Sequence record: PP925839.1
Strand: one strand, 5' to 3'
From: Escherichia phage PinkRuby
Length of the DNA: 64,000 nucleotides
Shown here piece by piece: positions 38,310 through 38,721 of the stretch (position 1 is the first letter of the stretch; each line of letters starts with the position of its first letter). The position numbers and the translations under genes were made by a program. The notes beneath the pieces were generated by a model that worked only from the letters and a program-made list of their open reading frames with translations, was not told the DNA's origin and ran no database searches.

Positions 38310-38353
38310 TTAGTACCTTATATAAATTATAATACATTTTATGAAGCTAATAA

Positions 38354-38701
38354 TCAATACGGTTTAGCATCAAATTTTCTTTCGATTTCAGGAGTGAAAT
38401 ATAATTCTTTACCACGTTTGGAAAAACGACCAATAATATGATAATTATTCTCATCAAACGTGATATTACCAATATCCATAGCTTTCAACCAAATATCGAT
38501 ATTTCTATCTAGTTTTATATCAAAATTCCAATACGGAGAACTATTACCAAAAATACTACAAGCGGATTCAGTGAAACAACTGCTATAAATCTTGTCTTTA
38601 GGAACTACTAATTGATAGACGCCTTTAATAAACTGAGGACCCTGCCATTTTGGTTGTTTCGCGTCTTTTTCTAATAGAATAGGGTAATAATTAAAATTCA
38701 T
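38354..38701 (-). CDS. Hypothetical protein encoded between frd and td
   Basis: 115 aa from ATG 38701 (track ORF starts at GTG 38713); no motif recognised. Confidence 0.5.
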   Translation of the reverse strand: MNFNYYPILLEKDAKQPKWQGPQFIKGVYQLVVPKDKIYSSCFTESACSIFGNSSPYWNFDIKLDRNIDIWLKAMDIGNITFDENNYHIIGRFSKRGKELYFTPEIERKFDAKPY

Positions 38702-38721
38702 ATTTTCCGCCACGTGTTATT

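Follow-up and report, generated by a model that had tools for sequence, protein, structure and literature searches.

In bacteriophage T4, the stop codon of the dihydrofolate reductase gene frd and the start codon of the thymidylate synthase gene td overlap as ATGA, and no gene is located between them. Gene junctions in T-even genomes are known to carry seg and mob cassettes (PMC2988022). These free-standing homing endonuclease genes are not the same in T2 and T4. The gene described here, ORF115, is likewise a small gene at a junction among the nucleotide-metabolism genes; T2-type phages have it and T4 does not. However, it differs from the seg and mob cassettes in that it has no nuclease domain, is found at the same locus from genus to genus and shows a divergence in step with its neighbours, with no patchy spread. 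Another relevant precedent is the deletion of DNA between short direct repeats, which is known in T4 from work on the rII region. The T4 frd-td junction fits a removal of this type, as suggested in this case by the comparison of genomes.

The family to which ORF115 belongs, phrog_1928, consists of hypothetical proteins from T4-like phages, such as Shfl2p237, RB32ORF229c and phiD1 g240. Size, the position between frd and td and the motifs W...HG(I/V)Y...GN...GRFxKxG...F are common to ORF115 and these proteins. In the long subfamily of phrog_1928, the conserved Trp is followed by an additional PTIxxYKxNP segment, which is lacking in ORF115, a typical member of the short subfamily from which no difference was found. 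Based on sequence comparisons and a structure model, we consider it fairly probable that ORF115 is an accessory gene specific to T4-like phages, native to the slot between frd and td and lost in T4, and that it encodes a small, co-made binding protein.

Organization of the frd-td region

The window, a 64,000-nucleotide stretch of the Escherichia phage PinkRuby genome, represents a T2-like Tequatrovirus, and positions 38200-38850 match Shigella phage Shfl2 and Escherichia phage KIT03 with 100% identity. Every gene of the region is located on the minus strand, in the order gene 32 (40985-41893), homologues of frd.3, frd.2 and frd.1, two small open reading frames (ORFs), frd, ORF115 and td, followed by the nrdA.2-like and nrdA.1 genes and then nrdA. 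The features at the junction are as follows.

37449-38309, minus strand: td, thymidylate synthase, 286 aa, intronless; downstream neighbour, from the ORF listing
38304-38324, minus strand: direct-repeat copy 2, TATATAAGGTACTAAATGAAA; td ribosome-binding region and first two td codons
38310-38353, minus strand: spacer of 44 nt between ORF115 and td; includes the AAGG ribosome-binding site for td
38354-38701, minus strand: ORF115, 115 aa from ATG, phrog_1928; from the ORF listing, profile match, homologue alignments, dN/dS and AF2 model
38702-38721, minus strand: spacer of 20 nt between the frd stop and the ORF115 ATG; includes a weak GGA Shine-Dalgarno sequence
38720-38732, minus strand: direct-repeat copy 1, TATATAAATGAAA; final frd codons, stop codon and two bases
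38722-39306, minus strand: frd, dihydrofolate reductase, 194 aa, TGA stop at 38724-38722; upstream operon neighbour

An earlier sequence-only reading of the window had described a segment of about 410 bp with a 115-aa minus-strand ORF between frd and td, at a place where T4 has the direct ATGA overlap. Both statements hold, since the interval from the frd stop to the td start measures 412 bp (38310-38721) with a single long ORF inside, and the comparison with T4 agrees on the overlap. The same short sequence had been noted at both junctions, and it was recovered as the two repeat copies listed above (38732-38720 and 38324-38304). The claim that ORF115 has its own ribosome-binding site was borne out only in part: GGA is present four bases before the ATG, but the site is weak, and reinitiation after frd, the stop of which lies 21 nt upstream of the ORF115 start, would be equally plausible as judged from the sequence. 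An alternative GTG start at 38713 would give a protein of 119 aa. The ATG is favoured because the N-termini of the homologues begin with MNFNYY, which matches the ATG start. The Frd protein of the window shows approximately 85% amino-acid identity to T4 Frd, and the td start, ATGAAACAATA, is kept in most genera examined, with the start in Mineola being ATGCGTGAATAC.

In 343 records, the 44-nt spacer that separates ORF115 from td is conserved. The spacers of PHB12 and JoYop are about 29 nt shorter and do not contain the promoter-like stretch, which in the window consists of ttaGCTTca at 38350-38342 followed by either TAATTT at 38329-38324 or TATAAT at 38331-38326. This extra stretch of about 29 nt may represent the insertion of a candidate MotA-dependent, T4-like middle promoter driving td. 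A scan for sigma-70 promoters and terminators gave nothing above the shuffled expectation, and an Rfam scan of 37300-39700 returned only a sub-threshold chance match to a Drosophila lncRNA model.

Several other features of the region were recorded. Since td is intronless in the window (37449-38309), there is no I-TevI, and the interval between gene 32 and gene 59 is a 99-nt gap (41894-41992) with no segG; this is the T2-type state, free of homing endonucleases, whereas T4 has both the td-intron I-TevI and segG there. The two small minus-strand ORFs between the frd.1 homologue and frd (39306-39551 and 39563-39895) encode proteins of 81 aa (phrog_3183) and 110 aa (DUF7247, phrog_3566), where T4 has a 71-nt gap, and thus constitute a second presence/absence difference from T4, adjoining the ORF115 slot. 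Downstream of td, the nrdA.1 and nrdA.2 homologues, which are DUF4326 and DUF5496 proteins, are located on the minus strand at 36882-37208 and 37162-37437, and their ORFs overlap by 47 nt, as in T4.

ORF115 is a conserved member of the phrog_1928 family

Comparison of ORF115 with its homologue in T2 identified 10 synonymous and no non-synonymous differences. Relative to JoYop, there are 23 nucleotide differences and a single amino-acid change (dN/dS 0.008), and the comparison with Mosigvirus PHB12 gave a dN/dS of 0.05. Among the ORF115 genes of allele A, defined below, dS ranges from 0.18 to 0.63. Because the dN/dS values are as low as 0.008-0.05, we conclude on the substitution pattern that ORF115 is a genuine and strongly conserved protein-coding gene, and a reading as a non-coding or spurious ORF was dropped.

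ORF115 matches phrog_1928 with an E-value of 8.4e-36, in an alignment that covers residues 4-111 and profile positions 2-125 of 126. The alignments A1, A2 and A3 display a conserved core that comprises W19, G27/Y29, G78-N79 and G91-R-F-x-K95-x-G97...F102, of which W19, G91, K95 and G97 are invariant among the homologues aligned. The exact protein is encoded on 341 public contigs, where it is always labelled "hypothetical protein". The T2 region is public as AY310907, and there the frd-td gap of 413 bp is unannotated. Thus, ORF115 already has a PHROGs entry, phrog_1928, and is listed as a hypothetical protein in hundreds of genomes, yet it is uncharacterised. Some records label the homologue "putative homing endonuclease", "putative dihydrofolate reductase" or "putative glucose-1-phosphate adenylyltransferase"; none of the searches made supported any of these labels.

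Homologues occupy the same position across T4-like genera

A tblastn search with ORF115 identified matches in 580 phage records, with one match per record. The identity was at least 90% in 362 records, including T2, RB3, RB14 and RB32, and below 60% in 218 records from other genera; in 265 records the identity was at least 99%. Outside of the T-even group, the nearest relatives are 63-66% identical.

The family member is located between frd and td in all 23 loci carrying one, with the reservation that locus L026 stops before td, so that the frd side alone was confirmed there. The contexts examined include the Kanagawavirus phages PEi26 (Edwardsiella) and Entb_45 (Enterobacter), Mineola (Klebsiella, Jiaodavirus), Cronus (Erwinia, Roskildevirus), STML-198 (Salmonella, Gelderlandvirus), Moon (Citrobacter, Moonvirus), CHI14 (Serratia, Winklervirus) and PHB12 (Escherichia, Mosigvirus), as well as the unclassified Klebsiella phage Biddle_MM4, two metagenomic contigs and eleven IMG/VR contigs. 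At least seven named genera of Tevenvirinae beyond Tequatrovirus thus carry a syntenic family member. The order of genes is frd, ORF115, an optional paralog, an optional 68-aa ORF and td. No member of the ORF115 family was observed at any other genomic position among the records and loci examined.

A search for related loci with alignment A2 identified 11 loci, all in T4-like genomes. An exhaustive profile search against 1.84 billion representatives recovered only 42 cluster representatives, and the contexts examined were T4-like, with one exception. A match in that search to P0041, a repetitive Ig-like protein of 928 aa, was rejected as a spurious low-complexity match.

The identity to the window across the other genera is 32-47% for ORF115, 45-54% for frd and 70-78% for td. 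The divergence of ORF115 is hence in step with that of its neighbours, which argues for vertical co-divergence of a faster-evolving gene.

Tequatrovirus contains three versions of the slot

In many genera, a longer paralog with the same Trp, HG-x-Y, GN and GRF-x-K-x-G motifs directly follows the ORF115 homologue. These paralogs match both the ORF115 profile and phrog_1928. In some genera, a 68-aa ORF (phrog_9550) is located directly before td. Slot neighbours in the wider subfamily usually share a stop-start overlap of the ATGA or TAATG type, and frd runs up to or over the start of ORF115, whereas the window has the 20-nt spacer at this position.

Within Tequatrovirus, we distinguish three alleles. 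Allele A, with ORF115, is present in about 354-362 records, including the window and T2. Allele B, found in 134 records at an identity of at least 95%, contains the 68-aa ORF alone, which overlaps both frd and td, as in Yersinia phage fPS-65. Allele C is the direct overlap of the T4 type, found in 32 records, many of which are T4 isolates. As judged from the distribution of the alleles, the fused junction of the T4 type is a rare state of the slot, and the most reduced one. Both T4 and the allele-B phages grow without ORF115, and because the gene is in this way dispensable in at least some phages, it is accessory, as the initial reading had proposed. The 68-aa ORF was located as follows.

68-aa ORF (phrog_9550): L010 (fPS-65), 1610-1816; L004, 2673-2879; L007, 2648-2854; L013, 4670-4879

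As an alternative occupant between frd and td, this ORF overlaps the frd stop and the td start in approximately 134 T-even and Dhakavirus records. Homologues with about 43% identity are present in Phapecoctavirus (for example phAPEC8), which is not T4-like, so that the 68-aa ORF crosses phage families. A further variant was observed in JoYop (L012, 1961-1971), where a 2-nt difference at the frd end extends Frd by 11 residues and makes it overlap the ORF115 start. This natural variant restores the arrangement of the other genera.

Predicted fold and possible functions

The AF2 model of ORF115, built from an alignment of 45 sequences, had a pLDDT of 91.4 and a pTM of 0.84. The elements are arranged in the order E-E-E-H-E-E-E. 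Strands occupy residues 6-12, 27-34, 62-64, 80-82, 86-96 and 99-104, and the helix, residues 68-76, follows the third strand. The model suggests that the protein is probably compact and mostly beta, with the OB-like strand order beta1-beta2-beta3-helix-beta4-beta5. By predicted strand-helix order, the nearest known counterparts would be OB-fold domains that bind nucleic acids or proteins (SSB, PriB, RPA, S1 and HIN). Aromatic and basic residues that are conserved in alignment A3 (W19, Y29, R92, F93, K95 and F102) probably fall where the binding-face loops of an OB fold would be located in the model.

The sequence-only reading had recognised no motif in the protein, and the database searches agree with it. 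None of the 45 family members matched Pfam or NCBIfam at E-values up to 1, and ORF115 did not match the PADLOC defence models at E-values up to 1. When profiles of A1 and A3 were run against PDB sequences, nothing but chance matches to TagH and dynein came up, with E-values of 0.017 or weaker. A Foldseek search of BFVD returned only uncharacterised proteins of T4-like phages, some of them from Aeromonas phages. A search of the literature for the locus tags and for frd-td phrases found nothing relevant, and the T4 reviews consulted are silent on the slot.

From the fold hints and the gene position, our best guess is that the product would be a small binding protein, with a protein or nucleic-acid partner, that is made together with dihydrofolate reductase and thymidylate synthase. 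Only gene position and co-translation tie the protein to thymidylate metabolism. A role in counter-defence or host takeover is about equally defensible for the protein. The explanation of the locus that follows this line, namely that ORF115 serves counter-defence or host takeover, has nothing to do with thymidylate metabolism and sits in the slot only because small early or middle genes are tolerated there, appears possible but rather unlikely to us. Many phage counter-defence genes show presence/absence polymorphism among close relatives, and the slot displays a similar polymorphism, with ORF115 missing in T4 and the allele-B phages; in addition, the protein is small, lacks a known fold match and is confined to phages. 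However, a position that is fixed in all 23 loci across many genera and that usually comes with translational coupling to frd and td would be unusual for genes with a fast turnover, the very strong purifying selection is accompanied by no sign of diversification, and no database match of any kind supports this explanation.

The junction repeat and the direction of change

From the shared sequence at the two junctions, the sequence-only reading had concluded that ORF115 arrived as a cassette inserted into an original frd-td overlap. This part of the reading was not supported by the comparison with other phages. Instead of an empty ancestral site, at least seven other named genera have a homologue in this slot, most relatives carry a homologous ORF at this position (about 354-362 records at the Tequatrovirus level and 218 distant records), and the fused junction is found in only 32 records. 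The presence in most relatives comes close to the finding that the reading itself had named as grounds for its refutation. Neither copies at other sites (a single match per record) nor a nuclease or transposase (Pfam and NCBIfam) were found. As judged from these comparisons, the direction of change was most likely the reverse of an insertion, with ORF115 as an old resident that was lost by T4.

The pattern TATATAA-N(0-8)-ATGAAA has two matches in the 64-kb window, one at each end of the segment, as compared to 0.19 expected from shuffles; the test is post hoc, with the pattern defined after the sequence had been inspected. On its own, the 8-mer AAATGAAA is frequent at gene starts; the window has 22 copies, versus 14 expected. 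Copy 1 of the repeat consists of the frd codons Val-Tyr-Lys-stop and two bases, reads GTGTATAA in T2 and is frameshifted in JoYop. The flanking repeat may be explained equally well by conserved start and stop contexts, by a substrate for the T4 deletion or by a target-site duplication.

The codons ATG-AAA-TAA (38725-38717) overlap the frd stop and are in frame with ORF115, giving M-K-stop-H-V-A-E-N-M-N-F. This shared frame suggests that an overlapped start of ORF115 has decayed at the end of frd, and not that the td start was duplicated there. The idea that the ATGAAA after frd is nothing but a leftover of the td start was rejected on the same ground and because ATGA is the standard junction of this operon.

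The AAATGAAA cores of the two repeat copies are 416 bp apart, and taking one AAATGAAA copy together with the intervening 416 bp out of allele A yields the T4 junction. The same junction results when one AATGA copy and 207 bp are taken out of allele B. For the frd gene and td exon 1 of T4, the identity is 96.6% and 94.7%, respectively, with fPS-65, but drops to 86% with the window. Since the T4 flanks resemble allele B more closely than allele A, allele B is at least as likely to be the parent, and T4 may never have directly carried allele A. Up to about 120-180 bp from the junction, alleles A, B and C share 95-100% identity; beyond this distance the flanks are mosaic, a pattern indicative of frequent recombination.

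The frd and td haplotypes are deep, with an overall identity of approximately 85-86% between the window and T2 (L014), T4 (L001) and fPS-65 (L010). In one 60-nt bin of frd, the identity is only 55-57%, whereas the ORF115 protein is 100% identical between the window and T2. The contrast between these haplotypes and ORF115 points to strong mosaicism among the genes for nucleotide metabolism in T-even phages.

A second alternative is a secondary insertion in Tequatrovirus, which we regard as unlikely. The ancestor would have had the fused ATGA junction, and the ORF115 segment would have come from a related T4-like phage, in which it was already located between frd and td, by illegitimate recombination that duplicated the TATATAA..ATGAAA junction. 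Homologous recombination in the conserved flanks would then have spread the segment further. The composite repeat is present only at the two ends of the segment, at 2 matches versus 0.19 expected, and ORF115 is not overlap-coupled in the window, unlike in the other genera. Moreover, the spacer before ORF115 loosely resembles a foreign frd 3' end, at about 13 of 21 bases (hand count on a MAFFT alignment), and the near-identity of ORF115 (at least 99%) in 265 records is combined with frd and td haplotypes of about 85% identity and mosaic junction flanks. On the other hand, copy 1 is made up of frd codons and differs in both T2 and JoYop, and the frd gene of JoYop reads through to overlap ORF115 as in the other genera. 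The dS values of 0.18-0.63 among the allele-A genes argue against a recent sweep, no close donor was seen, the nearest non-T-even relatives being 63-66% identical, and the fused junction, from which an insertion would have started, is rare. The post hoc nature of the repeat test also counts against this explanation.

A mobile selfish element that targets the frd/td junction, either a homing-endonuclease-like cassette or a small transposable unit, is very improbable, despite the seg and mob cassettes at T-even gene junctions (PMC2988022) and the depositor label "putative homing endonuclease", since no GIY-YIG, HNH or other nuclease motif is present and the 45 family members have no Pfam or NCBIfam match, 115 aa is below the size of the known seg and mob enzymes, and the gene is always found at one locus and has vertically co-diverged with its neighbours; a homing endonuclease, in particular, was excluded by the lack of a nuclease domain and the single fixed locus.

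Discussion

We favour the explanation that ORF115 has long resided in the slot between frd and td, which would be the ancestral home of phrog_1928. In the wider subfamily, the slot holds one to three small genes, i.e. ORF115, often the longer paralog and sometimes the 68-aa ORF. Tequatrovirus would contain reduced versions, of which allele A keeps ORF115, allele B only the 68-aa ORF and allele C nothing. The T4 state would have arisen by deletion between short repeated junction sequences, whereby whole genes were removed and the coupled ATGA junction was restored. Since overlaps of the ATGA type recur at several boundaries, recombination between two of them could remove whole genes and leave a coupled junction behind. 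Yet the uncoupled state of ORF115, with spacers of 20 nt and 44 nt, and the rare composite repeat are also what a secondary insertion would leave. According to the favoured explanation, the product of ORF115 would act on thymidylate synthesis, or on its messenger RNA, as a modulator or a tether, and the gene would be dispensable under laboratory conditions.

A more far-reaching idea, which we consider doubtful, is that the phrog_1928 proteins represent a missed third component of the phage dihydrofolate reductase-thymidylate synthase module, made up of small OB-like binding proteins that occur in one or two paralogous forms and are translated together with the enzymes. Possible roles for such a component would be the tethering of enzymes, the regulation of mRNA or the shielding of thymidylate synthesis from a host countermeasure. 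If true, a third component would have been overlooked for sixty years because the model phage T4 deleted it.

ORF115 is one among many uncharacterised small genes of T-even phages, and nothing about it is mechanistically surprising. Still, the strong constraint, the fixed site between the two thymidylate enzymes across many genera and the lack of a recognisable fold make it a reasonable experimental target. More generally, the comparison suggests that gene chains linked by ATGA overlaps can shed whole genes cleanly, with the translational coupling kept. The textbook ATGA overlap of frd and td would thus be a minority, derived state, most T-even phages having at least one small gene at this position, which corrects a view of the module that has been centred on T4.
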